Assembly (NCBI GenBank): GCA_004022145.1
Contig: RCNU01000011.1
Origin: Paecilomyces variotii
Lineage: Eukaryota
Strand: one strand, 5' to 3'
Length of the DNA: 64,000 nucleotides
Each line of letters opens with the position of its first letter. Position 1 is the stretch's first letter. The notes under the pieces are model-generated. The model was not told the DNA's origin. It worked only from the letters and a program-made list of their open reading frames with translations, and made no database searches. This document shows positions 26,303 through 52,486 of this stretch, one piece after another. Position numbers and translations under genes: made by a program.

Positions 26303-26831
26303 CCGTATAGGCCCATACGCTGACTTGGCATTATCTATGGAGTTGAGGCGTATTGTTAAGGATGATGTTAGCAGGTCCATTTTCTGCTAAAGGTGAACCA
26401 CAAGGAATGGAATTAGCTATGTGGCTTTGATAGCAGATTCACAACATGATGCTGGAGCATCTAACTTGAGACTATTCAATTAAATACGAAGGGTGCTGTT
26501 TGCATAATTGGCGTTCAGTATGAATTCTTCCTAGGGTAGCATGGACGAAGCCGCCTGCTTTTTCGTAGACTAAACCGTGGGATTGTTCTAGCTTATTAGG
26601 GACAAGGCGTAGGTCCGATTGCGACAAATATGTTGGAGACGGTAATATTATTTATTTGCTGTTTTCGTGTTCAAGGCTTCATCTTCATCATCGACCCCTA
26701 AAGAGTGTTGTTTCTCGCACGTGGGCTACTTACCAGCGTGCCGAACCTCCAACATACGCTCAAAGTAACTTACCTTGGTCTCGACCATGTTGTTGGATTG
26801 GAAAAATATATGAACCCCAGCTGTTCGCAGG

Positions 26832-28483
26832 ATGCTGGGGATTCTACTCCACAAAAGAGGTCGCTTACTTTCTGCGCTTGTTTTCCTTTCAGCGGTGATT
26901 ATCTGGGTCTTTTCGTGGTATTTGAATATCATGGGCGTGGCCCCTTCGGTTGCCATCCGCACGGCATGCGCGACAACCTTAATGACGGCCACAGCCGCCG
27001 TAGCAATTGATACGAATTGGCATCCTCCTAAATCGACAGCTGTTAATAACTTGGATACAGCTCTCAATAGCACAGGTGTTTATGGCTTCATATTCAATTC
27101 ATCCGAGACGCCCGCCAAGCTCTATGGCCGCTATAATTGGTGCAATATGCCCCATGTCAGAAAGGAGGAATATATCCAAGCTCCAAAAGAGTACGAGCTG
27201 GCGTACGTCGAGGTGGTAGGTCTTCGCGTTGATACTCTCTGATAGCCACATACTCATTCGAGATTCAAGATCCATCGTCACCACAAAAGAACTCCATATC
27301 AGTCTAACACGTTCCCGGTGGAATCGTACCCCTGGAGTTGCGACGATGCAAGTCTGTTCTATTACGGGGATCCGAGCCCCGGACATGATGCAGCGTTCAC
27401 TTACTGGAAGATCTACGAGACTTCGTTGAATCCCTTCAGCGTTTCAGGATTCAATGGCACTTGCTCCTTCCCGCAGATCACCAACGGTGGCCTGGCAGAC
27501 TCATGGCAGCATGGTCGAGATCTTTATGAAGTGTATCATGACGTTCTGCACTTTCTTCCATCCCATTTCGACGAGGAAAGTGTCTCGTTCAGAGTAACCA
27601 CAAATCAGATCACAAGCCAGGTCGCGGGTATGGTAACTAGCGCAATGTATGGAGCGGGCAAATCGATTCCTCTTCTCGTCCAGGTTTGTTACCAGTTCTT
27701 TATATATTTTCTGATAGATCTACGATTGCTGACCCTGCTTACCCCAAGAGAGATTCTATCGACTCCCTTGAACCTGCGTATTCCTGTTCCGCTGCAGATA
27801 CTCTGTACTCAGATGCGCAAAACCAGCCCAACTCGACATGGGCTGCGCATCTGAATCGGACCCAGTCGCTTTTCAACACTCTCGATAGTATCTCTGGAGT
27901 TTCACCTACCGCTAGTGACTGGCACGTAAGCTACGATCATTACTTCGACAACCTCTCCGCACGCTTATGTCACAATAAACCTTTACCGTGCAATATCGAC
28001 GACCCTTCCAAATGCGTCACGGAAGCTGAAGCAAACGAAGTATTCCGTCTGGGCGAGTTTGAATACTCGTACCAATACCGTGATTCAGCGACCTCTCTAG
28101 CTGCCAGTACGGCTTCCTTCGGTGTATGGATAGGTGAACTGGCACAGCATTTCCGAGACCGCGTGAGTGGTCAGAATGCTAAAATGAAATATCGCCATAA
28201 TGTCGCGCATGATGGGAGCTTATCCAGATTGCTATCTATCCTACAAGTTGAGACGATGGTTTGGCCAGGTATGGGTGCCGAAGTGGTTTTCGAACTCTAC
28301 AAGAAAGACGTCTCTGAAGGAGAGACTGGGTACTTTGTCAGAGTCCTCTGGGGCGGGCTGGTTCTGCGTAGCTCGAATCCTGACTTGGGAACTTTGGATA
28401 TGATCCCAGTGGAGACTCTTTTGGCTTATTTTGACGCTTTGGTTGGTCCGAAGGCGCAGAAAGTGCCTGGTTTGTGTGAGTAA
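26832..28483 (+). CDS. Secreted or membrane-anchored histidine acid phosphatase/phytase-like protein (2 introns)
   Basis: Hydrophobic N-terminus, YNWCNMPHVR, catalytic variant IHRHHKRTPY and C-terminal HNVAHDGS. The start may be 26832 or 26930. Confidence 0.85.
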
Positions 28484-29170: not shown

Positions 29171-30304
29171 TCATTTCTTGAGAATAGCACCCGGAGCAGC
29201 TGGCATCAAAGCGCCCGCAGGAGGCTTGTTCTTGCTCTTGAAGTCATCACACATCTGCTCCATTGTAACCCATTCGACTCCCTCGTGAGAGTTGATGTAT
29301 TCGATAATTCTGCAGTGGTGGGGGATCATAATTAGTCTCTGACATTACTGGGACAAGACGAAGGAAATGAATGACTAAGTAGGTACATACCTCTCATGCA
29401 TCAGGAGGACATGTGGACGACCAGATACGTCTGGGTGAATGGTCATAGGGAAGATGAACTCGTCGTATTCACGGTAGAAATAGTCGAAGTGGTCCTATTG
29501 CGATTGATGTCCGTTAGTATAACACCGTCATGGTAATTATCAGGTTTAGAAAACAGTAATACTGACCTTCCATATAGCTTCCACATCTCTCGGATTCACC
29601 CAACCATGACTGTTGGCCGAGGCTTTGATGAACATCATCGGAGGCAGGTCGTCAATGTACCAACTTCCTGGAATCTCAACGAGACCAGTCTCCTGCCCTC
29701 TCTCTAGAGGCTTCATCCATTCTTCTGCCGTCTTTTTATAATCGATCTTGGTCCACGTGTCGCCTGTTCGCAGCCAGTACATCTGGCAATCATGATGCGA
29801 CATGGAATGATCGTATTCGATTCCATACGATAAGAGCAGCTCTGTAGCCTCCTTGCTTGTCTCCCACCAAGGAGCTACGCTGCCGCGGGGCGGCTTTCCG
29901 CAAAAGTCCGTGAGCAAGCGGTATGTCTTGTCGAGCACATCACGCTGTTGCTCGAAGGTCATGTCAGAGGGATTCTCATGGCTGTATCCGTGCAGACCGA
30001 TCTCATGGCCTGCATCGCGAACCATGGCACACTCTTCGGGGAATGTCTCGAGGGAGTGGCCTGGGATGAACCATGTGGCCTTGATATTGTACTTTTCAAA
30101 TAGCTTCAGTAGACGCGTCGTTCCGATATGACCGGCCCATAGACCTGTTATTCTTTGTCAGACTGCTCAAGCTGACGGGAGTTCGTGCTAATACGAACCT
30201 CTGCTGATGTCGTTTGTGCTATCCTCTCCACCGTAGGAACCCAACCACCCCGCGACAGCGTCGATGTCGACGCCGTAGCTGACTAGAACCCGCTTCTTGC
30301 CCAT
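29171..30304 (-). CDS. hxnM: Polysaccharide-deacetylase-family (PuuE/PgdA-like) cyclic amide hydrolase, putative HxnM
   Basis: [52 protein letters not shown] and [18 protein letters not shown]. It lies at the edge of an hxnS/T/R/V/N cluster. Confidence 0.8.
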
Positions 30305-31241
30305 GTTTACGTCGGTTATGGTATGGTATCGATTGGATCTGGTTTCAAAAGCCCCCTCAAGACGCTCTCTTTGGAGGATGTCTCCTGAGTATTGTGGAAG
30401 ATGATGATCAAAGACGACGAAAAGACAGTACCACTCTCAAACCAATTCTTACCCCTCTCGAGATAAATATGGGCTATAACTACCGGAGAGTAATCGGACG
30501 GGGTATCCCGCTGTAATTAAGTAACATTAACTATCGTAATAGTCCGATTGGAACCCCGAAAGTACCAAAGCTAGCGCATAGCAATTATGGCCTCTAGCTT
30601 AAGCAATACGATAGAAATGTAGTAATAATAGTGGGCAGATAGAAACCAGTCGGGAGATAGAAATGCCTGCCTATCTGATCACTGCCGAGGCGTTATTGAG
30701 TTTACGATATGCCGCGAGGAGGGGCAGCCGATAAGGGGCGGGGAAGTTCATGAATTTCCCAGCCTTTAGCGCCAAATTATACTCAGCAAGTAGTAATGAA
30801 ACGTTTGTCTCGCCCCTTTTTTATGACACTCTTTATCTTTATGTTAAGTTAATATGTCTTTCGGTCCGTCGTTAGGGCTCGGGGATAGGGTTTAAGGTCT
30901 GCGCGGCGTTGATTGAGGAGTGGGGGTTGGGAAGACGGTAGACACAGACGTTGGTAAACGAAAATGGATAGAGATGATTATGTGGATAGATGATTTGGTC
31001 TCCTTGTGACTAATTGACATGATCAATGGACTGAGTATTCCCAGCGACGATCTGGCGTTGATACGTTGCGCAAATTGGTCCGATTTGTTGTCTGTCAAGC
31101 TCCATTCTTGGGAAAGCTCTCTCTTTAAGAACGCGCAATTTCTGCCAGATGGGATAGTGTCTTTACACTATTGATCGAGCAGAAAAGGGATCTCAACTTT
31201 GGATTATATTATTTGTATTATTCGTGAGTAAACACAACAAG

Positions 31242-32270
31242 ATGTCAAGAGTAAGAACTCTCAACCCTTTGTGATGCAATCTGCCACGGTATGACTGGAG
31301 GAGTCTGACAGTTTGTACGCAGTTCGATCTCAAAGGACGAACGGCCCTGGTCACCGGAGGAGCGCGCGGCTGCGGTCTGTCATTTGCTCAAGGACTAGCA
31401 GAAGGAGGCGCAGACGTAGCGATTTTCGATGTCATCGATCCAGCCCCGGAATTCTACGAGATCGAGAAGAAGTACGGCGTGAAAACGGCCTATTACAAGT
31501 GAGAAACCGCCGGAAACTCCACGAATGAAGTTGTTGGTCTCTAATAATATCCTGCGTCGTGCATCAGAGTCGATGTGAGCTCCAAAGATAGTCTAAAAGA
31601 AGGCTTCGATAAATTCAGCAAAGACTTCAATAACGCTCTCGATATCTGCGTACCCTGTGCTGGAATTAACCGACACATCCCCTTCCTCGAGTTCACCTAT
31701 GAAACTCATGAGGAACTACTTGGCGTTAACGTGAAGGGTGCGTATTTCACAGCTCAGCTGGCAGCGAAGCAGATGATCGCCAATGGCACCAAGCATGGGA
31801 GTATCGTGTTCGTCGCGAGTATCGCTAGCTACATGGCCATCCGCAGCCAGCTGAGTAGTTCATACTGCGCCAGTAAGGGAGCTGTGCGAGCGATGGTTCC
31901 TGCTATTGCTAAAGAGCTTGTTCCTTATGTGAGTCAAAATAAGCACAGCTTCGTTTGGGGATAAGAGTTAATTGTCCCACTAGGGAATCCGGGTGAACTC
32001 CGTATCCCCAGGTTATGTCCGAACAGAGATGACTGCCTCGGTAAGTCCAAGACAACATAATGTGCTGATAGTATTGGAGGGCCTTTCGAACTAACTATGG
32101 GATTTTTGCAGTTCCCACACCTCTTGGAAAGTTGGAAGGACGAGATAATGAACGGCCGTGTGGCAGAACCGGACGATATTCGCGGCGCCTGCATCTTCCT
32201 TGCTAGCGATGCAAGCTCGTACATGACCGGCCAGGATATTCGTGTTGACGGTGGTGTTACTATGTGGTAG
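31242..32270 (+). CDS. hxnW: Short-chain dehydrogenase/reductase (~253 aa, 5 exons), putative HxnW
   Basis: MSR|FDLKGRTALVTGGARGCG, catalytic SSYCASKGA (YxxxK), GIRVNSVSPG and TGQDIRVDGG. The hxnW name rests on cluster context. Confidence 0.7.
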
Positions 32271-32537
32271 ATTCCAGGTTGTTTCTGGTTCCCCCTTTAG
32301 CTGTACATAATGATCTAGGATGTCATGTATTGGAATTATAGATTACCTTTGCAGTAACTCTGGAACGAAGCTCGCTGAGCTTGAATTCTCTAGCAACTAG
32401 CTTGGCCTATTTAACTCTTTTGGTGGATCTAGAAAGGCGTGGGAGAAACCCGACAGGAGGGAGGCCTGCATACAGTATAGGCAGGCTCGGATAGTAACCT
32501 TCTCTAATAGCGATCTACATCTTTGACTTCGTGATAT

Positions 32538-34404
32538 CTAAGACCTCCAAATCTTCTCAATCAGCGTAGCAGCACCCAAGGCCTTCTCTTCCTCCAGCTT
32601 TCTAGCAACAACTTGCACATTCACCGGGTGGCCAGCCATACTATTCACGTCATACAGACCCCAATTCCACGCATCTAATTGATTCCGCGGCTGGTAAGGC
32701 GTCTCCGGCAAGGCATCCTTATCGGGTCGTACTTTGTCGACGGGGAAGGTAACGGCAGAATAATCAAGGACATTCCAGATCTTCGTATATCCCACCCAGC
32801 GACAACCTTTGTGCGGAACGGCTGTGTGAGGCATAGTGGGCGTGAGAAGAACATCGATCGGCTTGCCAGACGGGGAACGAGCGGCATTCCACTTATCCAT
32901 ATACCGCTTCTGGGCTGTCGTTCTCCGTCTGTTCAATTGCCAATATTCATACACAGATATGGCTTTCCCCTTGTTGACCAGCGCCTCGACATGGGGAATG
33001 AAAGGTTCCCCTGCAACGGCAACATCTCGACGGATGTCCTCGCCTCCATCAGCAGTGTAATAGAGATCCATGATCTCTATACACTCCTTATGATCCGCGG
33101 TATCCCAAGCGACTATCTCGTGGCCGTAAGATTCTAACTTTGCGGCTAGTTCCTTAAGAGCTCGTTCAATCGGGGGATGGACTTTCACAGCGCCATCGTC
33201 AATTATCAACCCGATGGTTAGCGGCCTTGACTGAATATCGCGGAATGCTGCATCGTCCCACGGGACTGGGCTGCACCTGGGATCCAAAGTCCAAGGCTTG
33301 CTTTCCGCAACTAGCCGACTTATATAGTAGAGAGAATCCATACACCGTGCCATTGGACCTACGGATGAAGGGACGTGTTCCTGTCCTTCGGTAGAAACAG
33401 GGACACCGTAGTAGGGCATTCTGCTACTCTAATCACGAATGAGAATTTATGACAATATTGTCGAATTGCATCCAAGAATTCACTTACGGTTGGCTTTAAT
33501 GAGTATAAACCCATCATATTTTGTGGAATTCGGACGCTTCCTCCGATGTCTGTTCCAAAGCCCAGAATCGAACCATGAAGCGCCAGGAGCGCACTCTCTC
33601 CACCAGTCGAGCCGCCGGGGGTGAATTCGGGGTTACGAGGATTGACAGTAAGTCCCCAGAGCGGGTTATCTGTCTCACACCACTGCAGCAACGTTTCAGT
33701 TGACAATTGCAAGTTTCAAGAGCGAGAGGCGAATCTTACCATAATACTCTGAGGAAGATTTGTCTTGGCGATAATCACAGCTCCCAGATTCCTCAGTATC
33801 TGCACAAGAACCGCGTCCTCTGCTGCGGGCTTAAAGGAGCGGCCGACATAGCCAATCGTACTATCATATCCTTTCACGTCGAACTGGTCCTTAAGCGTAA
33901 TGGGAACGCCATGAAGAGGCCCCTTGAGCTTCCCTGTCTCCTTGAACTTTGCATCCAGAGCTCGGGCGTCTTTCAATGCATCTTCGAAGAGTACTTCAGT
34001 CAGGGCGTTGGTCTGATAGCTAAGTTCAGTACGGTACGAGTCTGTTGGTTTACATGGTAGCTCACCAGTTGATGCGCAACAGTTGCCCTGAGCACCGAAA
34101 ATGTTAGCTTTATGCTAGACCCCGCACAAGATTCCATTGAAGTATCTGACCTTTTAATATATGCCAGAGTCACATCTTCCGCTGTAAATTCACCTTTCTT
34201 CAATTGCTGATGCAGCTCTGCCACGCTGTCTATATCTGTTATTTGCTGAACAGAAGGATCGGAGTCGATGCGAGAGCGAGCAGCGACATCATCGATGCGG
34301 GGAGGGCGTTTGTCTAGATCATCCACCAGATATGGTTTCAGAGCCTGATCTCTCAGCGATCGCTTCTTCGCGACGATCTCCTGCCACGACTCGGTGCTTC
34401 CCAT
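32538..34404 (-). CDS. hxnN: Amidase-signature family enzyme, putative HxnN
   Basis: GPLHGVPITLKDQF, TPGGSTGGE and GTDIGGSVRIP supply the Lys-cisSer-Ser triad. No signal peptide. Cluster context supports the name. Confidence 0.8.
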
Positions 34405-35056
34405 GTTTTCCTTTGTTGGAGATAGATTTCAAAACAATAATCGGTTATGTCTGCTGCTACCTGCAACCTAGGAAGGAAAACATCAGTTGCTTCTTACGCA
34501 TACGAAGATCATGATTCTATGTACAGTAAGTATATCGGTCGGCTTATCCGCCGCTGTCGCACCAGGCGTCAGATAGTTTATTCCTAGTCTTTATTTTACG
34601 ATATCTCCGTGGCAGATTGACTGACTAGTTCATTCCGTTAAACCATTTTCTATTTGGAGTTTGTAATCGGCGCGGGGTGGAGCCATCACGAACGATAATG
34701 AAGCGGAGGACAAGAGTGGGATGAAATACTGTAAGTACAGCCACCGTCTATCTCCTTCTCTCCACGCCACTCTAAACCCCCATCAACGCAGATCGCCAAC
34801 CACACGTCGGAATTGGAAAGCTGTCTCGACCCGAGCCAAACGCTTGACTCCAGCAGATAATCGTACGTTCTTCGTTCCGACGGCAAATGAATCCAGAAAA
34901 AGTTGGGGATAGTCTAATAGTACATTAAGAACCTCTCTTAGACCTACTTAGCAGTTCACCATAAATACTACCTAGGAGGGGGGCATTATTTATCTCCATA
35001 GACTTCTCAGGAGCATGAAACGGACTTTATCACAGGCTCAGTTAGAAAGGAACAAC

Positions 35057-35450
35057 ATGGCCCCCGGCGCTGACGATGAGGGCTTTATAGCCGTTAATAA
35101 TTCATCCGCAACCGAGCAATCAACCAATGTCACGGTCGTGGGAGCTGGGCCGTCAGGCTTGATGCTAGCGTAGGTGCTATCCTTACTGGTTTTCTGCTGT
35201 TTCTCAAAATAATATGAAGTTTTATGTTGTCTAACTGCCGGATATAGAAATAATCTCGCTCGATATGGAGTCAAGACTACAATTCTGGATGATCGACCTG
35301 ATCGAACATCGACTGGTAAGGCAGATGGCATGCAACCTAAGACCATCGAGACCTTTCGACAGCTGAGAATGGTGGAACCCCTTCTCAAGCAGAGCTGTAA
35401 GGTCTATGATATTTGCTTTTGGGTGAGTTCCTCATAAGGAGATGTGTCCT

Positions 35451-35484
<34 letters not shown>

Positions 35485-37306
35485 AATAAAAAGAACCTGC
35501 TCCTCTTTATAAACGTTACTAACATTACAAAAAGGAAAATACACCAACAACTCCACTGAGGAGGACGGGAAGAAAAATCCACTATCCCGATCACGTCGGG
35601 GCATCAGATCCCTATATCCTCCTAGCTCACCAGGGCATTCTGGAAGATGTACTCATTAAAGACATGGAACAGCGCGGCCTAGAGGTGACAAGAAACAGTC
35701 CCTTTGTCGACTGTTCCAGGGACGCTGAGGGCTCGAAACTGGACATTGTCTATGAAGACCTCAATGACAGAACAAAGAAGATCATCAAGTCAGACTTTCT
35801 TGTAGGCTGCGATGGCGCCAGATCGAAAGTGAGACCAGTCATTCCTGGTGCTAAGCTCGAGGGAGAAATGACCAACGCTTCATGGGGTGTTCTGGACGGT
35901 AAGGCAATGGCAAAGGGATATATCCTAGATTAAAACACTTAAAATACTAACACATCTACAGGTGTCATTGAAACTGATTTCCCGGATCTATGGAGCAAGA
36001 CGGCAGTCCGATCACACGATGGCTTCTCTATCCTCTTTATTCCTCGTGAACGTAACTTGACCCGTCTTTATGTAGAGCTCAGCGCTACGGATGGTGAGCG
36101 AATTGACAAGTCACTTGCAACTCCAGAGTATGTCATGAATAAGGCCAGAGAGATCATGGCCCCATTCAAGATGGAATGGAAGAGTATTGGTATGCTTTCA
36201 AATATCGAAAATTTTCCCACCCACGTTCGCAGCTAACAGTATAAAAACCAGAGTGGTTTGGAAACTATGTCGTCAGCCAGCGTGTTGCGAACCATTTTTC
36301 CGATCCTGAGCTGCAAATGTTCATCGCTGGAGATGTAAGTATATCTACACATTCTGCATGAAGGATTCCTTTTTCGAAACTGACACCACTTACATAGGCT
36401 GGTCACACTCACTCCGCTCTCGCCGCCCAAGGTGCCAACACCAGTATGCACGACAGTTTCAACCTAGCTTGGAAATTGAACCTTGTCATCCGAGACGTAG
36501 CCGAGAGATCTCTACTCACAACATACGAGCACGAGAGACGCAAGATCGCTCAAGACCTCATAAACTTCGACGCAGAGCACGTCAAGGCCTTCGCCGACAG
36601 CGACGAAGCCCTAGCACGCAATTTCGACGAGAACATCCGATTCATCTCCGGCGTAGGCGCTGAATATTCCAACAACGTTCTGAACCTCTTCTCCCCGGGC
36701 CAAACGTTCAATGGATCTCTGAAACCCGGCGCTTTGGTCAGTCCGCCAACGCGAGTGAGTCGATACGTGGACGCGAACCCGGTGGATTTCCAACTGGATA
36801 TTCCCATGTTAGGCCAGTTCCGGATCTACATCTTCGCTCCGGACGTGCATGCCTCAAAGACTTTCATTTCCTCTATCTGCGCATCCCTCTCTTCTCCTAC
36901 CTCCATCCTCTCTCGCGCCAGTGCCCGAGCAGAGAAATCGTATGCTGCCCAACCGCCCATTGCCTCTCCCGAGGACGCATTCGTTGTTCCAGAACGCTAC
37001 ACGGCAGTCTCTAAACTCTTCACATATGCGCTCGTCACGCAGACCCCGAAACAACAAGTCGAGATCGCAGATCTTCCTCCCCTGCTACAGGCTAGCCAGT
37101 GGACATTCTACACTGATGACTTGACATCTCCCAGTTGCACAGAGACATACCTTGGTGCATTGGGCACCGATCAAGTGGCTATTGTGAACGTCCGTCCGGA
37201 CGGATATGTGGGCAGTTTGAATGTCTGGGATAATTCTGTTACAGGAGCAGGCGAAGAGGCGGCTAAGTGGGTGCAGGGTTATTATGAGGGATTCTTGAAG
37301 CGTTGA
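35057..37306 (+). CDS. hxnV: FAD-dependent phenol-2-monooxygenase-like hydroxylase, putative HxnV (multi-exon)
   Basis: [66 protein letters not shown] and C-terminal VRPDGYVG. Confidence 0.82.
35453..35483 (+). repeat. A31 homopolymer inside intron 2 of the hxnV-like gene
   Basis: 31 consecutive A between the donor GTGAGT (35423) and the branch site TACTAAC (~35517). Confidence 0.9.
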
Positions 37307-37667
37307 ATGAACGGTTGTTAGGTATATTATCATCTTTGGAAGCATATGTATTTATTTTTTTGGCTTTTCTTTGAGAGTGAGGTCTGTAGATGCTTCAGTC
37401 AACTTCTTGTCCTGGATATGTGTCTCAGTAACACCTATATATACAGGCACTGGTTGTAAGTGTACAGGAATAATCTCTAAAAGATAGGTCTACGACAATA
37501 GGACTACATTGAAAGAGAAAAATATATTTCGTACTTGTCTTGAATTATCCATATGCCCCGAGAATCTCTTACAGATCTTGTATTAACTAACCACTACATG
37601 GCATATCCAAAATAGATGAAATTCCCTTTGACATCATACCTCCATAGACAAATTCCAAACTCGCCCA

Positions 37668-40600
37668 TCAAGACACAGCAACGAAGAACGGCTTCTCCCC
37701 CTCTTTTGGAACAACATTCGCCATCTTAACCAGATCATCGCCCACAGCCAATCTCAACCTTTCCACCGTAGCGGGCGAATCGAGCATCAAGGGCTCAACG
37801 ACACCATTCTGCTTCCTAGCCTGCACCAACGCATCGCGCAGAGCGAAGAGGACAGTCGAGCCAAGAAAAAGCGGCGGTTCACCAATTCCTTTACTACTCT
37901 GTATAGAACGGAGACTCTGCCAGGAGACGCCTTTTAGAAAACTGACGTTGAACTCTTGCGGGATGTCGCTGAATCCTGGGATCTTGTACGTGCCAGGGCC
38001 GCGGGTCACTAATTGGCCACTGCCGTCGTTGGCCCAGAGGGATTCCTCGATGGTGAATAGGCCCTGGCCTTGGACGAAGGCGCCTTCGACTTGGCCGTAG
38101 TCGATGGCAGGGTTGATGGATCGACCCACGTCCATTTTGATATCTGTGCGAAGGACGGTGTGGTCGCCGGTGAGAAGGTCTAGTTCGACTTCTGTACATG
38201 CGGCTCCCTATTCATATCTCGTAAGTACGTATTCATATGCGGAAAGAAAGATAAGGAAAATAAAGCACTTGAGACTGACCTGCGTGAAATAGTAATACAT
38301 CGGCTTAACTGTTTCGGGATCGAAGTTTCCAAACTGATACCCAATGCGAGGCATGCTCCAGTGGCCGGTAGCTGCCAAATTGACACGATCCCGGTAGGCC
38401 GCGTTGGCTATGGTCTTGAAGTCCGCATCTTGGCCAAACTTCTCCCAATATGGCTTGAGACGCGCATTGAGTTGATCACAAGCGTTCTTGATAGCCATTC
38501 CATTCAGATCACTTCCAGAGGACGCGGCTGTAGGCGAGGCATTGGGGACCTGGTATGTCGAAGTGTCTGCCGTGTAGACGTTTTCAATTGGCACGTTCAG
38601 CTCTTGGGCGGCCACTTGGCACATTTTGGTGTACAATCCCTGACCCATTTCAGTACCACCATGGCTGAGAAGGACAGAGCCATCTGTGTATATCTTCACT
38701 GAAGCAGCACCCTGATTCAGATGAATGGCGGTAGCAAAAGACAAGCCGAATTTTGTGGGTACGAGACAGATACCACGCTTCTTCCACTTGCTCTTCGAGT
38801 TAAACTTTGCTATCTGGGCTTTTCTGTCATCATACGAGGCCTCCTTCCGCAGTTGCTCCAATAGCATGGGTACGTGCCAGTCTTCGTCGATCTTCTGCAA
38901 GAAAGGCGTGCGGTTCCCTTGTTTATACAGGTTCTTCCACCGCAGCTCGTCAATATTCATCTTCAGTCCCTCAGCGACGGCGTGCATGTAGGTCTCAGCA
39001 AAGAACATGGCTTGTGGAGCTCCAAACCCACGGAAGGCAGTATTACTGTGGATGTTGGTCTTGCAGACATATCCACGGATGTGGACGTTCGGAATCTCGT
39101 AGCAATTGTCAAGGTGTGTCATGCATCGATCCATAACAGATGCACTCATGTCCAGGGACCAACCGCCATTGTTATAGCAATGGGCCTGGAGAGCTTTGAG
39201 GGTGCCGTCGTGCATCACGCCCACTTTCCACACGCACTTGAAAGGATGTCTTTGACCGCTCGTCATCATATCCTCGTCACGATTCAGCATTGCTCTCATC
39301 GGTCGACGTTCCTTTACTGCAGCAATAGCAAGAAGTCCCGCAAGTTGAATGCTCCTGGACTCTTTGCCTCCGAAGCCTCCACCCATACGCTTGACCCTAG
39401 CATTGATACGGTTGCTCGGAATCCCAGTGACTCTGCTTATTAACTCTTGTGTTTCCATTCTAACATGTTGTTAGCTTAGTCCATACTGCCGTAATGATGG
39501 CCACTCACGTATGCTGGGTAGAAGACCAGACATCCATGGAGTTATCTTCCGCGTGTGGAATCACCATGGCAGCATTAGTCTCGAGATAGAAGTGCTCCTG
39601 GCCGCCCATTCGAGTGATACCCTCGAAAACGCGATCGCACTCTGAGAATACCTTCTCCATCTGTTCCGGAGGTGCACCTTTGCGCAACTCCTTGCTGTAA
39701 TCATAGAAGCTCTTCGCCTCAATAGCTTCGTCTATTGTCAAAATCGGTTTCAGCTCCTCGTACTCGACCCTGACCGCACGCGCAGCGGCTTGAGCCTGTA
39801 ATGCTGTCTCTGCGTAGACCATGCCAATGGGTTGACCGTGAGAGTACACCTTGTCTTCTGCGAACCAAGGCTCGTCTTTGACAATAGAACCCCATGCATT
39901 CTTTGACAGATCAATACTGTTCTTGTCGATATATCCGAGAGCCAGACCCGGCTTCAGAGCAGGAGTCCAGTCCACTGACTTGATGATAGCATGCGCTTTC
40001 TGGGACAAAACCAACGCACAGTACAACTCGCGGTCGTGATGCGGCATGTCATCCAAGTATTCCGCCTCACCGGTTGTGTGTTTCAAGCCCGAGAGATGGG
40101 GAATCTGCTTTCCTACAACACGCTGCTCGTACGGGTTGGTGTTATCTCTGCTTCCGAATGAGACCTGCCGGTGGATTTCTTCAACTAGCTCAGGGTCAAC
40201 TTCACCCAGTTTCAGTTCTGCAACGACCTCATGCCAGAAACGGAAGAACATAGATAGAGCAAGCGTCCTTCTATAAGTTGCCATGCCGCCTGGGACTCCA
40301 TACGGAAGCTGGAACGAGCTCTTCAAGCTGTCAAGTGCGCCACTCAGAGTCTGTGGACAATACCATTTCTTTCCTTTCAAAAAGGTCGAAGTACTCGTAG
40401 CCATAACGGTCATAGGCGCCATTCCACCGTACGCTAGAGCGACGTCTTCCACAATTCCCCGTTTATCCAGCCTAACGCGGAATCCTGCCGTGACGATGGC
40501 AATGTCATCATCCTTTCTCTTGGCCTGTTTATATGATTTAGTCAACTCTATCTCATCAGGTGGCGGAACTGGTACTCGGATTCGGACTATCACGCTTCCA

Positions 40601-42234
40601 GGAGGAAGAGCTGTCCTGCGGTACCCCAGGAACATAGACGACATAGGTATGGTGGCTTCTCCCTTACTGCTGACTGCAACAACGCTAGCATTCGCCACCA
40701 TGAGAACAGGGTTCATGTCTGAGATAGGCGAAGCGGTCGCTATGTTACCCGCCAGCGAAGCAGCGTTACGTATCTGACGCCCAGCGAAGTATCTCAGTAC
40801 TTTCGCCATAGCGCCAAATACGGACCCTTGTTGTCCAAGCTTGGACGCGAGTCCATAACAAGCAGATTCCACATCACTGAGAGGAGTGTTCCCTCCAATG
40901 ACGAGCTCCTTCATGCTTGAAACATCCTCTGGGACATCCATCCGCTTCAATTCTTCGATATCAGATACGAATACCGAAACAGCATATTTAGCATTCTTGA
41001 AGCGAACTTCAATCTGAGTTTCGCTGGCCCCGCTAATGAGCTTCGCAGATGGATATATAGAGAGTAACTCGACAAGCTGCGCCAGGTTCACCGGTCGTAG
41101 CCAGACTTTAGTCTCATCGCCATAACAGATCGGTCGGTTGATATGTTTCCGTAGACCAGGAGGATAGATGAGTTCTGTAGATGGCACGTACGGTTTGAAA
41201 TCAAATTGTGGAATCGAGCTCTTTCTTGCAGATTCACCGCTATCTGTCGACAAACTCGTAGCGGAGCTCGTCTCATCCGTTGGCGACGACCCAGACGATG
41301 ATCGAGAAGGGCTTGATCCGCAACCCTTGATAGACGGGTTGTCCCGACAGCAACCTCCAGGTCTACCGCAAGAACCATTCGATTTCGACGAACCAGGATA
41401 CGAACCCTCCACATAAGAGCCATCATCCTCCCGAGAACTTGGCGTTAGATCCAACTCTCGCGATCGAGAAACATCATCAGCGAGCTCTCCCCGGAGATCC
41501 TCCGTAATAAAAGTCTTTGCCGCTTGAAGAATTGGTTTATACCCAGTGCAGCGGCACAGATTCCCATCCAAATGTCCCCTCATCTCTATATCGTCTTCGG
41601 AGAGGCTAAATTTCCCTGTCTGCGCGTCATATGCATTTCTGATTATGGCGTATAAGGACATGACAATTCCCGGTGTGCAGAAACCGCATCTGGTACTGTC
41701 AGTGCGCGATCTCTCGATTGAAAACATATTCGATGTTCATACTGGGATCCGTGCAGCTTCCCCAATCGTTCTTGTAGAGGATGTGGATGATCCACATTCC
41801 CCAAACCTTCTACTGTGATAACATGCTTCCCCACAACTGTACCGGGACGTGTCAGTATATATATCTATTCCACGTCTTCGTAGAGGGAAGAACATCGTAC
41901 CTCCGACCAGTGGATACAAGCAAGCATTAATAGCCTGATGCCATATTCTCCCACCACGCATTGAATCGACAACCTGCAGCACGACCGTACAGGCACCACA
42001 TCCTCCTTCACCGCATCCCAGCTTCGTGCCCTTCAGGCCATGCTGTGAACGGATGAAATCAAGCAGCGTCCAATGCGGATTAGGGTTGCGTAACTCGATT
42101 TTGCTGCCATTCAGATAAAACTCGAGCGTAGACGTCGTATATGTCGACGTGACCAGCTTCTGGAGGTTGTCTGTCTCCTCCGCGGAGGGGAGATTGATGG
42201 GCTCAGGCTTCACCAATGGTACTGGGAGCACCAT
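37668..42234 (-). CDS. hxnS: Xanthine-dehydrogenase paralogue nicotinate hydroxylase (purine hydroxylase II): 2Fe-2S, FAD and Moco domains, 5 exons
   Basis: GTKLGCGEGGCGAC, QCGFCTPG, GNLCRCTGY, GGGFGGKES, AFRGFG and SSKGIGEPPL. It has the HxnS-type FATAIH motif instead of the FTAL of canonical XDH, and is divergent from an OYE gene as in A. nidulans. Confidence 0.9.
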
Positions 42235-43000
42235 CCTTCTGGCTTCCTCTTCCCAACCACTCTCACGACGTATAGTATAGGAAGGCGGAGACGTTCTCTT
42301 CCCAGGCTCTCAGCTCGCTGATAACCAAAAGTAACAACAATTTAACCCAAGACAGAGGTATCTCATCCACACAAAACGAAGCAGTTTCCAAGAGAATAGT
42401 AATCTACGACGAAGAAGGTACGAAGCACCAGGAAGCGGGAAACCAGCCCCAATACATTGATTGCGATCTGAACTGGCATTCCCAGCTCGTGTTCTATCTG
42501 CATTTCGAGAGCGTAATCTGACGAACCTATGGAAAGCGTCCGTGTCCAGGATCAAGATAGGTTGTGTGGCTTGAGATTGGCCGTAATCGCGAACAGTGAT
42601 GTATATCAAATGCACCCCGCGTCGGCACGTCCGCTTTCTATTCGTATTAGGGGTTATTGGCGATTGCCACCTCATCTCTGCTTGGATCAGACAGGATTGA
42701 TTAATTGATTGATTGATCCAAAGAGCACAATCGTCTATTATCAGGCAGGGTATCGAGTAGATCAATCAGTCATGCGTCCTTGCCATGCTGTAGTTATTTC
42801 TGTATTGCTTGTCTCGTAGAGTAGTGAATTGGCTGGTGAATCCAACTATGACACCTGTAACGGGGCTCGATAAGCTACTCCCCTGTAGATAGACATAACA
42901 ATGCACGGTTAGAGTCGGTGATTATTTAGAACCCCCGGCCGTACACAGTAGATTAATACTAGAATAATGCATCAAGTTATGATCCAGTCGAGTTCGACTC

Positions 43001-43063
<63 letters not shown>
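43001..43063. repeat. (AAT)21 microsatellite in the hxnS-hxnT divergent intergenic region
   Basis: Perfect AAT run read directly from the sequence. Confidence 0.97.
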
Positions 43064-43066
<3 letters not shown>

Positions 43067-44109
43067 TCACTCAAGTGCGGAGAAAGAGAAAGACGGCCGA
43101 TCCGCCGTGGCGATAAGAAACGGTTTCCGAGTCCCGATCAGGCAGGAGCTGGGCCGTGCGAGGATTGGAAAAAGTGCGTGGCGTTTATACGGAGCTCAAA
43201 GATGGGGGTTTGAACTAGTAGACTAGCGTTAAGTAGAGGTAGAGCCGTAGTGACTACTACAGCCGACAAGCCATGTCGTTTTCAAGGTTACGGATGTTTG
43301 AGTAACTACCTTAGGTAAACTATATTGAGTCAGTATCGATTGCAGTAGCCAGATCTCCGTTTAGATTGTTGTTATGTGCGGAAAACATACACTTATTATT
43401 ATCACTATTATTCTCGAGTCATGACTCATGAAGGTGGCTTTACCACCAGTGTTGTGTTCTACTCAATAGACCATTCATAACAAAAAAACTAGATACAGTT
43501 CTCCATGGAGGGGTAATTCCTCCAAGTTTTCATAGAGCAAGAAAAAAAAAACTTGGATATCCCACCTACGATTGACTGCAAAGGAAAGTGGATGCGGTCC
43601 ATAGTAGCAACGCAACGGTAACTACTTACTTAGTCTGCCCACTCTCGTTGCACGTTTTGTTCTAATGAGGAGGCTATACTGTGGCCACTGTCGGTAACAC
43701 CCCAGGTCGTCGTTTACAGTAGCATTCAGAGTAGTAAATTTGACCAGAGATGGCGAAATCGGGTCTGAGCTTACCCCTTAAGACCTGATCCACCGGAGAT
43801 GGGATCGATCTCACACAAAGGGCTCCTAGTAACTAGGTAGTTAGTTAGAGGATGGGATAGCTCCTTTTATGCTTGATGTCCCGCGTCTCGGTCTCTCTTT
43901 TCTTTCTCTCTTTGTTACTACATTTCTTGCTTGATCTTATAAAGACTGCGACTAAGTTAGTTCATCTATTATCATTCATATCGTTCAACGCCTCGTCTAT
44001 CTATTCTATCACTCTGGCTCCAATCACGAGGAAGAGAAAAGCAACAATAGAAACAACCGGAGAAAGTCACCAGGAGAAGAAGAGGAAAGACAATAACAAC
44101 AGAAAGAAG

Positions 44110-45503
44110 ATGGCGACTTTCACCCCTCTCCAGGAGACTGTTTTGTTTAAACCCCTCCGTCTGGGGTCTCTCAATCTCGAACACCGCGTCGTCCTGGCCC
44201 CGTTGACTCGGATGCGCGGGACGAAGGAGTCCGACGGCGTGTTTGTTCCCAATGACCTCTCGGTGGAATACTACAGCCAGCGTGCTTCCAAGGGTGGTTT
44301 CATGTTGACTGAAGCTACTCCAATTAGCAGATACGTGAGTTTTACATTCCTCCAGCATCCCTCAAGAATTGAGTGAGTGTGGGGAAGTGAAAAAAGATAG
44401 GGAAGCTGATAAAAAGTTTATCTTATCAGTGCGCAGGATATCCCGGCGTCCCTGGCATATTCACCGCTTCTCAGATTGCGGGATGGAAGCGTGTCACCGA
44501 TGCTGTCCATGCTAAGGGGGCTTATATATTTTGTCAGCTCTGGCATGTGGGACGAGCCTCATGCCCATCGTTTCTCGATGGCCGCAAGGCGTTGGCCCCG
44601 ACAGACATTCCCATCACGGGAAAGGCCATGGATGGTACCGAGTATGCGGACAACCCACCCAAGGCTATGACCGTCGAGGAAATCAAGGAGACGGTGGCCG
44701 AATTTGCTGCGGCTGCGAAGAGGGCCATTGAAGCAGGCTTTGATGGTGTCGAGATTCATGGTATGTGTTTATTTATCTATTACTGTTCAGACTGAGAAAG
44801 ACTTATGCTTACACTCTTTATTCCAGGCGCCAACGGTTACCTTTTGGATCAGTTCCTCCATGACAACGTCAACACTCGTACAGACGAGTACGGAGGCAGC
44901 GTTGAGAACCGCTGCCGCTTCCCTCTGGAAGTCATCAAGGCTGTCACGGAGGCAGTGGGTGCACAGCGCACCGGTATCCGACTGTCTCCTTACAACTATT
45001 TCCAGGACACCCGCGACTCCGACCCCAACGGACATTGGATCTACCTGTGTGAACAGATCGCTTCTCTATCAGATGAGAATCGTCTCTGCTACGTACACAT
45101 GGTCGAGCCCCGTTTCGATGAGGTTCTGGATGAAAGTGCCAAGCTCGATGCTCTTTCTGCCTACACTGGAAAAGGCGTCGAGGCAGAGGCTACCGCACCT
45201 AAGAAGATTGTTGGAAACACCCTCGATCACTTCCGCAACGTGTTGAAGAAGACTGACGTCAAGTTTCTGGCCGCCGGTAACTTCAACCGTGATAACGCGG
45301 TGCCCAAACTGGAGAGCGGTGCTGCCGATGCCATCGTATTTGGTCGTTCGTTTATTGCGAACCCAGACCTTCCACGGCGTTTGAAGGAGGGTCTCCCTCT
45401 CAACTCCTATGACAGGTCAACCTTCTATGGTGCTGACCCTCCACAGAAGGGATACACTGACTACACATTCTATGAGGACAAAAAGGTTAACGGGACTGCG
45501 TGA
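44110..45503 (+). CDS. hxnT: Old Yellow Enzyme family FMN oxidoreductase, putative HxnT (2 introns)
   Basis: RVVLAPLTRMR, EYYSQRAS, QLWHVGR, GFDGVEIHG|ANGYLLDQFL, RTDEYGGSVENRCRF and FGRSFIANPDLP. Confidence 0.88.
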
Positions 45504-45760
45504 ATGGATTTGAATTTGTTGCAATTATAGATTTGCGGGATATGATACCATCCTAGAGATAAATAAGGCAAATGTGCCAAAACAGTAGCCTGAAATAAAA
45601 AGAATGGGGGATAATTTTACAGAAAGAAGTGAATAAACGCAAAAAGAGAAATGATAGATATTGCCAGATACCTGAACAATAAGAAAATTCGACAAATATC
45701 ACCATAAATGGCGGATATAGAATCCATAAAGACATATAGGAAGGAGATTTCATAAACTCA

Positions 45761-48755
45761 TTATGCGTATGCAACTCTCCGTGATTCAGACAGATGTAAT
45801 AGTACCTTCATCGCGTCGTGGACCACCGCCCATCGCACCGTCGCAAGCTGTTTCGCCATTATGGCGGTTAGCCCCGTGGTGTCAAAACGGCCTGCCAGGG
45901 CGGACAACTCCTCGAGACTGTTACATGTGGTCATGCCAATCAACATGGCAGCCATCTCATTTTTGGCATCGACGCCATCGGCCGAGGGAAGTCTCCTCTC
46001 GCCAGAAGTGGAGGTAGGGAGATGGAAGGCCCAGCAAGTTAATGTGGCCAAATAAAGACACCAAGAATAATGGAAGACCTCGGTGTCGTCCCAGTCATTC
46101 AGGTTCATGACAGCATCTTGCAAGATATAAGAGGCATGCCTTGCAGCCTTGGAAGCAGACCTTGGGTCCTCGTTTACCCATCGCGTCACAATCCGCTGGG
46201 AGCGCTCGAAGTCAGAAGCAGTGACAATACGGCCTAGAATATGCGGTGCGCCAGCATAGATCTGCAAGTCCAGCACTTCGACATTCAATGTAATGTGCGC
46301 AGCATGATAGAGAACGTGACTGGCAGTTTTGAGGCCTGTAAATTTGCGCAGGTCCGCTCTCTGGTTGAGCTTCATAGTCATACAGTCGGCATCGAAGTCC
46401 GCTTTCCAAAGGTCGTAGGATCGTCCCATACGTGCCTTCCAAGCTCCAGCGAGGTCTGGTGTCCCTGATCGCAATGTTGTTTGATCGCGACGCTTGAGAT
46501 CAGAAGAGACTGACATGAGACCATGGAGTAAGAATATCCTCGCCATGGCATTGAGATGACGAGGACGTGGCATCGCACTGGGAGTGATATATGCCTTCAG
46601 AACAGACAAGAACGGAGGGTGCGTCCCTTCTCTCACAGAGCACTTGAACCACTCTTCCGCCGACGGGGCCTCCCAGGACGCAGTATCGCAAGGCAAAGAT
46701 GAGCGGATTTCGAAAGCAGACATACATAGAGACTGCGAGAAAAGAACCGCATGCTGGGTGTCCCACATGAAGCAGTGCATTGCCAGTCGTTTGCGTTGTT
46801 CCGCATTCATTGCATTCCTCCATGCCGTCTCAATATCCTCCGGCCGTTCAGTGGCCCCAGCTGTTTTGATAATTGGACAGTCGCTTCTCCGGATGAGCTT
46901 GATAAGGACGCAATGGAATAATTGCGCCATATCGCGCTGTTTCTGACCAGCCCTCAATTTTCCGAAGCAATCAATCAGAAGCATAGTCTGCAACAACCAG
47001 AGGTCTGGCTGGGCGGAAAACGCTGCATGAGCAAAAAGGTGGTTTCGAAGAGTATCGTGTATCCGAACTGCCAGCTGATGAGCTTCCCGGCTACTGTAGG
47101 TGGCACCTAGCGAGAGTATAGCGGCCAAGAAGATCCGATCAGCTGTATTGGGATCAAATGTGGCTTGATGTATAAGAGGATATGACGTATTGAAGCGTGT
47201 AAAGAACAAGTCGCAGTACTCTTGCAATGCTGACAATGTAAGAAGGTGCGAGGAGATGTCGATACGTGTGCCTTCAGGCGTTGTCGGATGCGACTGGGAC
47301 ACTATGCTGAGAATTCCCGCCCTCGCATCCTCATTGAGACGAGGAAGACTGTTTCCAATGCCTGTTTGCTCAACTGGTCCCATCCAATCAAGGTTCGAGA
47401 AATCAGGTATCTGTTTGCTCTCGCTCTCTGACACAGGAGCTTCATAAGTTGGCGCTGACCTGGAGGAGTCCGTTTCGACAGGGCCTTCCTGGTCACGAAG
47501 ATCTCCACGGCCATGTTCTAGAGAGCTTTCTTGAAAGGCGGCGGTATTTCTTCCGAAGTTTGGGCTCATGTTTACGTCGAAGAAGGAGTCACCATTTCCC
47601 GGCGATATTGCTGTCTCCAGCAACTGCCCGTCCGCTCGAAGAAACGGCTGAGACCACATGTCAGGGACCGGCTCGGCGAAGTTTGCCATGTCTGTCGTCA
47701 ACGGGATATCAGCATGGCTGAATGCATCGTCAAGCGAGGACACGTCGAACAACCAGTTATAGTTCAGGGTGGCAGCGAAGGGCATGTTGAATGAGGTAGC
47801 TATACCGTTGGTTAGCGAATTTGGAGCACTTGATGATGACTATACCAAAGGAGGAACAGCGGCCCGGAACGCGATATATCACCTACCTGTATCCAGATTG
47901 AAAAAGTCATCGTTGATACTGTCAAGTCCACCAGAGTGGGTTTGCCATGAGCCATCTGCGGCATCGAATTGTCCTGGGAGAGGTTCCACATATGGTTCGT
48001 AAGGGCCACCAGGGACCATCGGAGCCAGGAATGGCTCTGGGCTGTTCATTGTATCGCAGGACCCTGCAAGGTTGCTCTCCATACGGATACTAGAACCGGA
48101 ATCATGAGTCGACCGAGGAGGAGACACTGGAGCTCCAAGTGGAGGCTGGTCATTGTTCTGTTTGTGTTCTCCCCCTCGACTAGATGCGCAGTGTGAACTA
48201 GGCGTAGTCATCGATTCCGCATCCATGCGTCGACTTTCCGAAGTCATGCTGGCTCCGCATGAGCTTTGGGTTGATGATGATGAAGACATATAGTTATCTC
48301 TCGTCTGAGAGGCAGCAGCGGCCGCTGCCGCGGCCGCTTTTGCCTGCTTCTTCGTTGGTCTGGTCACAATCGTCCCATCTGGTGCTCGACGAGTGCGTTT
48401 GCGCGTCTCCAGCACCCCCAATCCTGGACCTCCAGCTTCTTCGTCTCTTTTCGCGTGACGCATCATGTGTCGACCTATCTCCACCGTAAGTGGGAAGTCC
48501 CGCAACGAAGTGCGATTGATTGTACTTGTAGAACCTACCCAGAAGGTCCGGACGGGTGAAATGAACACCACACCGTTCGCACGAATTATCATCCTGCTGA
48601 TGGTTCAGCGCGTGCCTGCGTAGATGCTCGGCTCTCGTGAAGGTCTTTCCACAGCCCGGGAAATCACAGACGTGCGATTTAATGAGCTGCAACTTCGAGG
48701 GAGTGCTCGGAGTCGTCTGCGATCCGGTCCGTTTGACACTAGCAGAGGAGGCCAT
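45761..48755 (-). CDS. hxnR: Transcription factor with two C2H2 zinc fingers and a fungal-specific TF domain, putative HxnR (2 introns)
   Basis: CDFPGCGKTFTRAEHLRRHALNH and CERCGVHFTRPDLL|GRHMMRH, followed by a C-terminal Fungal_trans-like region. Adjacent to hxnT and hxnS. Confidence 0.85.
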
Positions 48756-50148
48756 TATACTTCATGCACATTCAATGTCGACTTATTTGCTTGGTCTCCG
48801 TGAAGTACGTGAGGAATCGAGCAGAGATCTAGATTTCAGAACAAAAAAAAAAAAAAAAGACAAAAGAATCAGCCAGCGCTGATATCGTAGACTAAACTTT
48901 CATCCTTCGTGGTCCAACGCCCCCGCATGGAAAAGGTGCAGGAAGAGGAGGCGTCCAAGCTTGCGGAGAAGGACGAACATGTTTGTAGTCCAGCCGATCC
49001 CAAAGAGTAGTGTTTTCGGCGAGTCACACTTCGGCCGAATGCCGTTGGAAGCAGATTGGCCTCGTGCCGGGTGTTGTTGATAAGGATCGTGGCGTTCTAT
49101 CGTGGAGTGGGCAGTGGGCACTGGGATAGACGTGCGTGTGCGTAAGGACGCCGTGGATGGACAATCTTCTTCGTGTTTATTGCCAATTTGCCACGCTTTC
49201 TCGGGGCGACCATTGCCTATTCCGGGGAAGTTCAGCGAGACACTTAGATAGTAGTAGTTAGTCTAGATATCTAGTAGTCAGTGCTGCGCGATAGCTGGTC
49301 AGTGCCGAAACAGGGCAATGATAAGTAGAGCGCCAATAATGCTCTTATCTGATATTTAACCCGGCCCTGGCAGGTAGAAGCGAGGCTAGACGCGATCAGG
49401 AGAAGATATGAGAAGTATCTAGTGAACCATTAAGTTGATTGTTTGTTATAAATGCGACTGACCAATTCTTCCCCCAGTCATTAATTGAGTTCTCCATCCA
49501 ATTCCATGTGGCTGAATGGGCCCAGGTGGTCAGTCAGCGGAAGAATGCAGTTCCGGTTCTCTGGATAAAGATGTAAAGCTGCGTATCAGATGATGTCCTT
49601 TCGCGTTATACCAGGAGATAAGATGGTGTCTTTACCTGTGAGAGCTAATCTTCCAACCAGCTTTATCAACATTATTTGGGCGTTGTCCGATGATCGGTTA
49701 TTGACGTTCTTGAGTATCTTGAATATAATCCAATAAAATGATACAGCCAAGAGGAGAAGGCACTCATAGGACTTGTGTGCATATAACACCATTTTCCATT
49801 GCTTCTGGATGATATGCTAATGTCTTCACATTCTGTCTCGATCATTTCTGGTAATGAATAAGATATTCCTCGAAGGAAGGCCAGGCGGTGAAGATGATGT
49901 TACTGAAGACTGCCATTCACCACTTGACGACGGGATGTATCGACCACTCTCCAGCCACATTTCTTTGTTTCCTGTTGTCTTCACGAGGGGCTTTCGTTAT
50001 TTGGTTCTGCAAGTGAGAGCTTCTGAGACCTTTAAGTATTCTTCTCCCAGACATCGCCGCGAACCACGACTTTTTCAACCACCTCACATACTGTATCTCG
50101 CGAAAACAGCACAGTTTACACAAACCAGGTGGGATCTCACAGAGCAAC

Positions 50149-51229
50149 ATGTCGAAAGAAAAACCCGATAATGCACAACCCCTGGAGGATGAAACGGAGA
50201 TCGAAAAGCTTGACGCAGAGGGAGACGTGACTTTAGTTGTGGGAGGTAACTCCGTGTCCCCACGTCAGTTCCTTGTATCCTCAAAGGTCCTCTCTCTTGC
50301 TTCTCCTGTGTTTGCAAAATTATTTGGACCACATTTTTTGGAAGGCTCGCAGATGGCAAAACACGGCAGCATCACAATTCACCTTGATGAGGACGATGCT
50401 AAAGGGATGGGGACAATCCTCGGAATCCTTCACTACCAGGAGATCCCAGAGATCGAGAAACTTAGCGCAAAAGAAATAGTTACTGTGGTTATCTGCTGTG
50501 ATAAGTACGATTGTGCCAGAGTCATCCAACTATGGATAGAAAAGTGGTTCCGCAGTCTCGATCAGGGTCTCTCCGCGAAGGAGTATGGCCATGCTCTTCT
50601 TGCGGCGCATCTGTTGCGCGCATCAGACGACTTCTCCCAGATAACGCGGAGGATTCAACTGGAGTTCGGGCTGGGTTCATTCCATGCATGGGATGGCGAG
50701 GAGATTCTGACTTTGTTGCCACGAAGTATTAGACGTAAGATGGACCGACTCTATTTTCCATGCTGATATCTTACGTTTGGCAGGTGATCTGACAAAGGCA
50801 ATTGGAGACTTATTGAATCGTATACATCATGAACTGCAGTCGATGGACTTGGTCCTCAAAGGCACCGCACCCGTCAGGAAGTGCGGGATGATGTGCATGA
50901 CTTGCGGCAAAGAGTCCTTTCTTTCTGACATTTCCAAGTGCTATTACTGCAAGACCCATACAAGCAACCCATGCAAGGAAGATCACCGAGTAGATGTGTA
51001 TTTTTCTATGCTGAGGAAGAAAAATCTCTGGCCTTCTATCACTCCATTCCAAACTTTGTCCGCCAACGCCCTCGCAGTGTCCATTAAGCGGCTGAAGGAT
51101 GACCTAGAACCCTCCTGCGATGAGGCATCCGGATGCGTGGTGACCCCAGAATTGAAAGGACTGGAGGAAAGGATCGATGGAATTATCGGGAATGTTAAGG
51201 GGCTGTCTCTTTATCCTCTGTCAGGGTAA
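50149..51229 (+). CDS. BTB/POZ-domain protein with a C-terminal Cys-rich segment (intron 50735-50783)
   Basis: DAEGDVTLVV, FLVSSKVLSLASPVFAKLF, LDEDD and CDKYDC. The second exon has CxxC pairs. Confidence 0.85.
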
Positions 51230-52458: not shown

Positions 52459-52486
52459 AAATAAATAAATAAATAAATAAATAAAT
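52459..52486. repeat. (AAAT)7 microsatellite
   Basis: Read directly from an AT-rich intergenic region. Confidence 0.9.

Follow-up and report, generated by a model that had tools for sequence, protein, structure and literature searches.

A known fungal system that degrades nicotinate (vitamin B3) as a source of nitrogen is the hxn regulon of Aspergillus nidulans, whose genes lie in three clusters (1/VI, 2/VI and 3/I; PMC5746545, PMC8478523, PMC9304392). The splitting of this cluster by inversions has been treated as derived, and single 11-gene clusters have been described in Cyphellophora europaea and Hymenoscyphus repandus, alongside a 10-gene cluster in Monascus ruber (Bokor 2021, PMC8478523). 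According to the same survey, the main cluster outside Aspergillus includes hxnM and hxnN, and the couples hxnM-hxnW, hxnN-hxnV and hxnS-hxnT are kept across classes (sections 2.1-2.3). In Byssochlamys spectabilis, PVAR5_8010 and PVAR5_8008 have been listed as hxnS and hxnR on one contig with the code L (Amon 2017, PMC5746545), and Table S4 of that work gives the two genes this code, with the same contig and strand, in both B. spectabilis and Thermoascus aurantiacus; we read L as 'linked'. Here we analyse a 64,000-nucleotide stretch of the Paecilomyces variotii genome (hereafter the window; C3:62001-126000 of a 30.1 Mb, 86-contig assembly), which very probably carries the enzymatic and regulatory core of the hxn regulon in one block, with hxnX, hxnP and hxnY unlinked elsewhere in the genome. 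A one-block layout is the usual state outside Aspergillus, and P. variotii is another example of this published situation.

The block consists of seven neighbouring, intact genes at 29171-48755, in the order and on the strands M(-) W(+) N(-) V(+) S(-) T(+) R(-), i.e., three divergent pairs (hxnM-hxnW, hxnN-hxnV and hxnS-hxnT) and the regulator hxnR, separated by gaps of 937, 267, 652, 361, 1875 and 257 bp from M to R. All models have GT-AG introns and zero internal stops; exon coordinates were set by hand and afterwards matched by spliced contigs, and the hxnR model of 947 amino acids (aa) is identical to the annotated P. variotii protein P0241. Pfam finds Polysacc_deac_1 in HxnM, adh_short in HxnW, Amidase in HxnN, FAD_binding_3 and Phe_hydrox_dim in HxnV, the full xanthine dehydrogenase (XDH) domain set in HxnS, Oxidored_FMN in HxnT, and zf-C2H2 with Fungal_trans in HxnR, the same families as given for these proteins in Table 1 of PMC8478523. 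The ends of the block, the gene order and the families agree with an earlier note on this DNA, which had described seven adjacent genes in three divergent pairs plus a regulator. HxnR has two C2H2 fingers and PF04082; the first finger was scored by Pfam, while the second is completed across intron 1. GAD99297 (PVAR5_8008; P0004 in our set), which the supplement of PMC5746545 includes in its list of HxnR proteins, is 86% identical to it. Orthology of the M, W, N, V and T proteins to those of A. nidulans is suggested by domain, length, numbered residues and synteny. In HxnW we find TGxxxGxG at 14-21, S146, Y161 and K165; in HxnV, residues D64, K230, L242, I244 and Y254 correspond at an offset of -1 to A. 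nidulans D65, K231, L243, I245 and Y255, and L125 stands where A. nidulans has I126. The three-exon structure of hxnT is named as conserved in the S7 legend of the preprint (bioRxiv version). One hxnM paralogue exists in the genome, matching at 45% and 34% over two pieces. A search for exact matches to the translations of two exons gave none.

HxnS proteins have been defined by an extra alanine that separates Phe from Thr (FATAL type), by His in place of Phe1013 and by other residues, among them an aliphatic one at Ile478 (PMC5746545, section 2.2). The earlier note had recognised a FATA(I)H motif typical of HxnS, and indeed the protein reads FATAIH at residues 1111-1116, with all 10 of the 10 published residues tested mapping at a single offset of +47 (E856, R934, F968, P1008, F1064, A1065, T1066, H1069, S1137 and G1138). 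The Ile in place of Leu also occurs in metagenome loci such as L013, L016 and L017. The only other XDH gene of the genome, on contig C2, is 55% identical to HxnS and reads FTALF. In a midpoint-rooted FastTree phylogeny of 64 distinct molybdenum-cofactor-domain segments, none of them from A. nidulans, the window protein falls among the 38 alanine-insertion rows and the C2 copy among the 26 others, at 100% Shimodaira-Hasegawa support. Grouping with canonical HxA, which the note had named as an outcome that would refute it, is therefore not what we see, and HxnS stands apart from the HxA-type copy.

Comparison with 80 metagenome loci, of which 45 carry the alanine insertion, 33 are HxA-type and 2 have no readable motif, points in the same direction. 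Another of the seven genes was found nearby in 31 of the 45 alanine-insertion loci vs none of the 33 HxA-type loci, counts to be read with many contigs being short and several loci near-copies. Gene order and strands in L003 and L004, apparently one sequence in two metagenomes, are as in the window (82% identity at HxnS), and L032 and L033 hold all seven genes as R-T-S-V-N-M-W with a hxnP-like gene beside R. Among side observations, a reverse-transcriptase-like fragment (judged by eye) lies between the hxnN-like and hxnV genes of L042 (2410-3615), a locus with zero hxnT or hxnR matches within its 21 kb. In L012, a histidine-phosphatase-like gene sits between hxnR and a hxnY-like gene (16369-20811); that a histidine phosphatase also lies at the edge of the window cluster is probably a coincidence.

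How does this layout compare with the published ones? With A. nidulans it shares the seven protein families, almost equal lengths (308/307 aa for M, 253/254 for W, 544/543 for N and 623/620 for V in P. variotii/A. nidulans), the HxnS signature, the hxnS-hxnT divergent pair and an hxnR co-stranded with hxnS. Unlike in A. nidulans, M, N, W and V are joined to S-T-R, W couples with M instead of X, and N couples with V; X, P and Y are unlinked from the block, the X candidate lacks SRL, and the P and Y candidates are co-oriented with one gene in between. With C. europaea and M. ruber (PMC8478523), P. variotii has in common a single block, the M-W-N-V order and the hxnM-hxnW and hxnN-hxnV couples, and with C. 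europaea only also the hxnS-hxnT couple. It differs from both in that the block has seven genes, leaving X, P, Y and Z outside; from Monascus in that hxnS is inside rather than outside the cluster; and from C. europaea in that hxnR has the opposite orientation relative to hxnS (PMC5746545, Table S4). B. spectabilis and T. aurantiacus, members of the same fungal family, have hxnS and hxnR about 3 kb apart (PMC5746545, Tables S1 and S4 and the HxnR list); those tables give S and R only. A literature search, with most subscription journals and figures outside it, brought up no publication whose main text mentions P. variotii together with hxnS. Fig. S5 of PMC8478523, with its drawn cluster layouts, may already depict the Byssochlamys/Thermoascus gene order.

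One part of the earlier claim, namely that members of all three A. nidulans loci sit together here, stands, but the block contains seven of the eleven hxn genes and lacks hxnX, hxnP, hxnY and hxnZ, which the note had overlooked. No homologue of hxnX, hxnP or hxnY was found in the window (tblastn, E<=0.01), and absences at the genome level refer to the best-scoring candidates of genome searches. The best genome match to cluster-linked HxnY is at C1:1828557-1829698 (59-69% identity, the next locus reaching about 30%), and relatives of this dioxygenase gene have locus tags 1-2 from hxnR in P. chermesinum, A. nanangensis, P. hispanicum, P. angulare and P. digitatum. About 2.4 kb upstream lies a major facilitator superfamily (MFS) gene whose product is sister to the HxnP group with 100% support in a 12-row tree, in which four gene models that fuse hxnP with hxnR supplied their MFS halves as references; by sequence it may be the hxnP orthologue or a close paralogue, and we call it hxnP-like. 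Those public models (P0039, P0046, P0057 and P0096, in Penicillium, Talaromyces and Aspergillus) are probably annotation artefacts of adjacent genes. The hxnP-like gene, a small gene (HAD-like by eye) and hxnY share one strand and are flanked by two genes resembling fungal transcription factors (L096 1300-6750; G000:C1:1824300-1829750). Another MFS gene, on contig C67, was considered as hxnP and dropped in favour of the C1 gene.

For hxnX, the best genome match of two cluster-anchored HxnX queries is C12:1445755-1447452. The gene appears complete in that tblastn covers residues 1-429 and annotated proteins have 429 aa, and its protein (P0255) keeps, by spacing, all seven HxnX residues named in PMC9304392 (Gln59, Val223, His232, Val234, Tyr236 and Val247-Leu248-Leu249 were checked; the motif is also readable in the C12 DNA). 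Another candidate for hxnX, a flavin-dependent (FAD) monooxygenase gene about 49 kb away from hxnM at C3:42 kb, was dropped because its product is ~33% identical and groups with paralogues. As the candidates for hxnX, hxnP and hxnY are unlinked to the block, the regulon lies in at least three places in P. variotii, too, and is split at other points than in A. nidulans.

Transferring by orthology the chemistry established in A. nidulans, HxnS would hydroxylate nicotinate to 6-hydroxynicotinate (6-NA), HxnV would convert 2,5-dihydroxypyridine (2,5-DP) to 2,3,6-trihydroxypyridine, HxnT would reduce the ring, HxnW would carry out the oxidation to 3-hydroxypiperidine-2,6-dione, HxnM would open the ring and HxnN would release ammonium. 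Because the block covers only the S step, the V, T, W, M and N steps and the regulator, the intervening conversion of 6-NA to 2,5-DP, a non-leaky step carried out by HxnX (PMC9304392), would have to come from outside it, most likely from the HxnX-family monooxygenase encoded on C12. HxnR together with AreA would switch on the three divergent pairs from shared promoters, probably via RRRAGTGGGG sites.

These sites come from footprinting, which yielded AAGAGTGGGG, an extension of the predicted HxnR site GHGGGG, a site that PMC8478523 describes as not determined by experiment. The motif AAGAGTGG occurs in 11 of 16 de-duplicated hxnS/hxnT intergenic regions, against 0.4 expected from Markov resampling; of the 15 hxA upstream regions used as controls, one has it. 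When a matrix was trained on the 15 regions other than that of the window, it found sites in 14 of them, with the consensus AAGAGTGGGGGA, which contains GHGGGG. At a threshold of at least 12 bits, held-out hxn intergenic regions had sites in 12 of 18 cases vs none of the 15 hxA upstream controls (Fisher p 5e-5), the 18 being hand-chosen, mostly from training loci, and not phylogenetically independent. By sequence, the extended motif is a candidate HxnR site. On the other hand, of the three sites that score highest in the window, two (28774 and 45600) sit in convergent gaps, and the regions upstream of the unlinked X, P and Y candidates score 9.6, 9.7 and 11.5 bits, both of which speak against the candidate. 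GHGGGG itself has 79 matches in the window vs 81 expected, and HGATAR sites are present in each of the four upstream regions, though the whole window has 238 of them. The strong sites at 28774-28986 (hxnM tail) and 45600-45611 (hxnT/hxnR tail) have no gene start nearby; the idea that the three sites at 28774-28986 are a relic promoter of a lost hxnX found no support, neither from a hxnX remnant nor from conservation in L003. A 16.8-bit site lies just past the stop codon of the hxnP-like gene on C1. The S/T region of the window is enlarged (1875 bp; the other 15 regions retained measure 413-746 bp) and contains an (AAT)21 array at 43001-43065, and its comparison with L003 gave no useful alignment.

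Transcription of the block, growth conditions and levels apart, is supported by spliced contigs of the putative RNA run X1, in which 14 of the 15 listed joints (13 more exist) coincide with 14 of the 24 modelled introns. Listed pieces of X1 also agree with hxnS intron 3 and with the start of hxnR exon 3. Contigs of X2 and X3 are unspliced and DNA-like and were left out as expression. In the hxnN/hxnV intergenic region, X1 and X6 contigs reveal a 61-nt GT-AG intron (+ strand, 34731-34791), which suggests that hxnV has a long spliced 5' untranslated region whose start coincides with the candidate HxnR site at 34712 or lies upstream of it.

Features of the hxn block, its candidate regulatory sites and its boundaries (positions in the window)
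Feature	Position	Strand	Remarks
hxnM, cyclic-imide hydrolase (HpPgdA-like)	29171..30304	-	308 aa, 3 introns; 3/3 introns seen as joints
Candidate HxnR site, M/W shared promoter	30916..30927	+	17.9 bits; same 12-mer in L003
hxnW, short-chain dehydrogenase	31242..32270	+	253 aa, 4 introns; 4/4 introns seen as joints
hxnN, amidase	32538..34404	-	544 aa, 4 introns; 4/4 introns seen as joints
Candidate HxnR site, N/V shared promoter	34712..34723	+	14.0 bits; same 12-mer in L003 and L012
hxnV, phenol-2-monooxygenase-like flavoprotein	35057..37306	+	623 aa, 5 introns; 3/5 among joints listed
hxnS, molybdenum nicotinate hydroxylase (XDH paralogue)	37668..42234	-	1442 aa, 4 introns
FATAIH codons, HxnS signature (Ala insertion, His for Phe)	38721..38738 (approx.)	-	HxnS residues 1111-1116
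S/T shared intergenic region	42235..44109		1875 bp; best motif score 9.7 bits
hxnT, old yellow enzyme	44110..45503	+	410 aa, three exons; H185/N188
hxnR, C2H2 + Fungal_trans regulator	45761..48755	-	947 aa, 2 introns
Left boundary, histidine-phosphatase-family gene, not hxn	26814..28483	+	Pfam; start approximate
Right boundary, BTB-domain gene, not hxn	50017..51229	+	Pfam; ends approximate

Beyond the two boundary genes, the flanks (window 1-28000 and 50000-64000) carry ordinary genes, among which Pfam identifies those of a hexokinase and a Zn2Cys6 factor and one that is NmrA-like. Other flank genes we take, by likeness, to be Tom40, Elp2, tRNA isopentenyltransferase, GET4, RFC2, eIF1A, Chs5 and Rad1/XPF. 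Between hxnW and hxnN (32350-32495) lies an interspersed repeat, short at about 110-140 bp, with at least 39 further copies in the genome at 78-91% identity (best 40 of 80 candidates scored), possibly a miniature inverted-repeat transposable element or a solo element. A poly-A run is found inside hxnV intron 2 (35453-35492), and Rfam gave zero matches within the window.

Several explanations compete with that of a hxn core. Each of the seven families is large in fungal genomes, and in principle generic oxidoreductase and hydrolase genes could have come to lie here by chance around that of an ordinary xanthine dehydrogenase; given the HxnS signature and its tree position, the separate HxA gene and the contrast in partner genes between the two classes of metagenome loci, we give this idea next to no credence, and for hxnS and hxnR it is already refuted. 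That the block was re-assembled or horizontally acquired, as reported for Aspergillus section Flavi, is very improbable in our view. Whole-cluster transfers have been published for the hxn system (PMC8478523), and beyond Thermoascaceae and Rasamsonia the next named relatives of HxnR are from Onygenales (62-63% identity), which are as similar as Monascus and more similar than Aspergillus and Penicillium. Against this, HxnR identity declines with kinship (87% in P. lecythidis, about 76% in the Thermoascus cluster, 71% in Rasamsonia), the M-W-N-V order is the same as in C. europaea, and the GC content of the block (42-52%) is like that of its flanks. Faced with the earlier note's alternative of an ancestral or a re-assembled architecture, a retained one fits better, since PMC8478523 treats the A. 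nidulans split as derived, and the inference as such had already been published; most likely the block is an ancestral core that was retained and has lost its satellites. The word ancestral here comes from the published comparison rather than from reconciled trees for these genes, which is one point to hold against our interpretation. Others are that the spliced run X1 was guessed to be RNA and its contigs carry no growth conditions, that the S/T and hxnR upstream regions of the window score weakly (9.7 and 6.6 bits), and that, within the window, enrichment of the motif in the four promoter regions does not reach significance (p 0.085-0.21).

The remaining points against it concern the C12 gene, and they also feed the rival that we take most seriously, albeit as a rather unlikely one: Thermoascaceae have lost the true hxnX, the enzyme encoded on C12 is an old paralogue that acts on a different substrate, and the route from nicotinate is broken or weak. 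The main role of the block would then be to detoxify or use 2,5-DP-type compounds, with HxnS acting on other N-heterocycles. In a 125-row FastTree phylogeny (three cluster-anchored HxnX rows as anchors; 2 of 120 rows removed for exceeding 560 aa and 7 locus rows added; no Aspergillaceae rows; the second-best genome match, C4:44282-44953, 44% over one exon, not included), the C12 clade is inside the HxnX family but basal and long-branched, outside the 116-row group that holds the cluster-anchored rows, to which it is about 52% identical; the 120 of 293 matches listed contain no HxnX from Aspergillus, Penicillium or Talaromyces. The protein reads HAVCY instead of HAVNY. Compared with the consensus of the type 1 peroxisomal targeting signal (PTS1), it lacks a canonical C-terminus, ending in SNM, and its relatives in Thermoascus and P. 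lecythidis end in SNI or SHI. HxnX of A. nidulans, on the other hand, ends in the peroxisomal signal SRL (PMC9304392). The motif site upstream of the C12 gene is weak (9.6 bits), and by locus tag or accession C12-type genes are far from hxnR in P. lecythidis, P. variotii No. 5, T. thermophilus and T. crustaceus. Finally, a second 6-NA-converting activity, unable to support growth, has been described (PMC9304392).

As to what these results mean, a single-block hxn cluster in P. variotii adds one genome more to a published survey and changes little. The new leads are the separated, atypically tagged hxnX of Thermoascaceae and the extended candidate HxnR site, both of them testable handles and the latter ready for binding and reporter assays. 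A hxnX gene apart from hxnW and without the usual peroxisomal tag bears on the location of the pathway and on the piggyback idea. It is conceivable, if on balance doubtful, that Thermoascaceae have rewired the peroxisomal step, with the clustered, SRL-tagged hxnX gone and replaced by an unlinked, early-branching HxnX-family enzyme that has no canonical PTS1 and is unpaired from hxnW, and that RRRAGTGGGG is the real HxnR site. If this rewiring were true, the whole pathway may run in the cytosol, or enter below 6-hydroxynicotinate, and these fungi would amount to a natural experiment on the HxnX-HxnW piggyback import that has been proposed.

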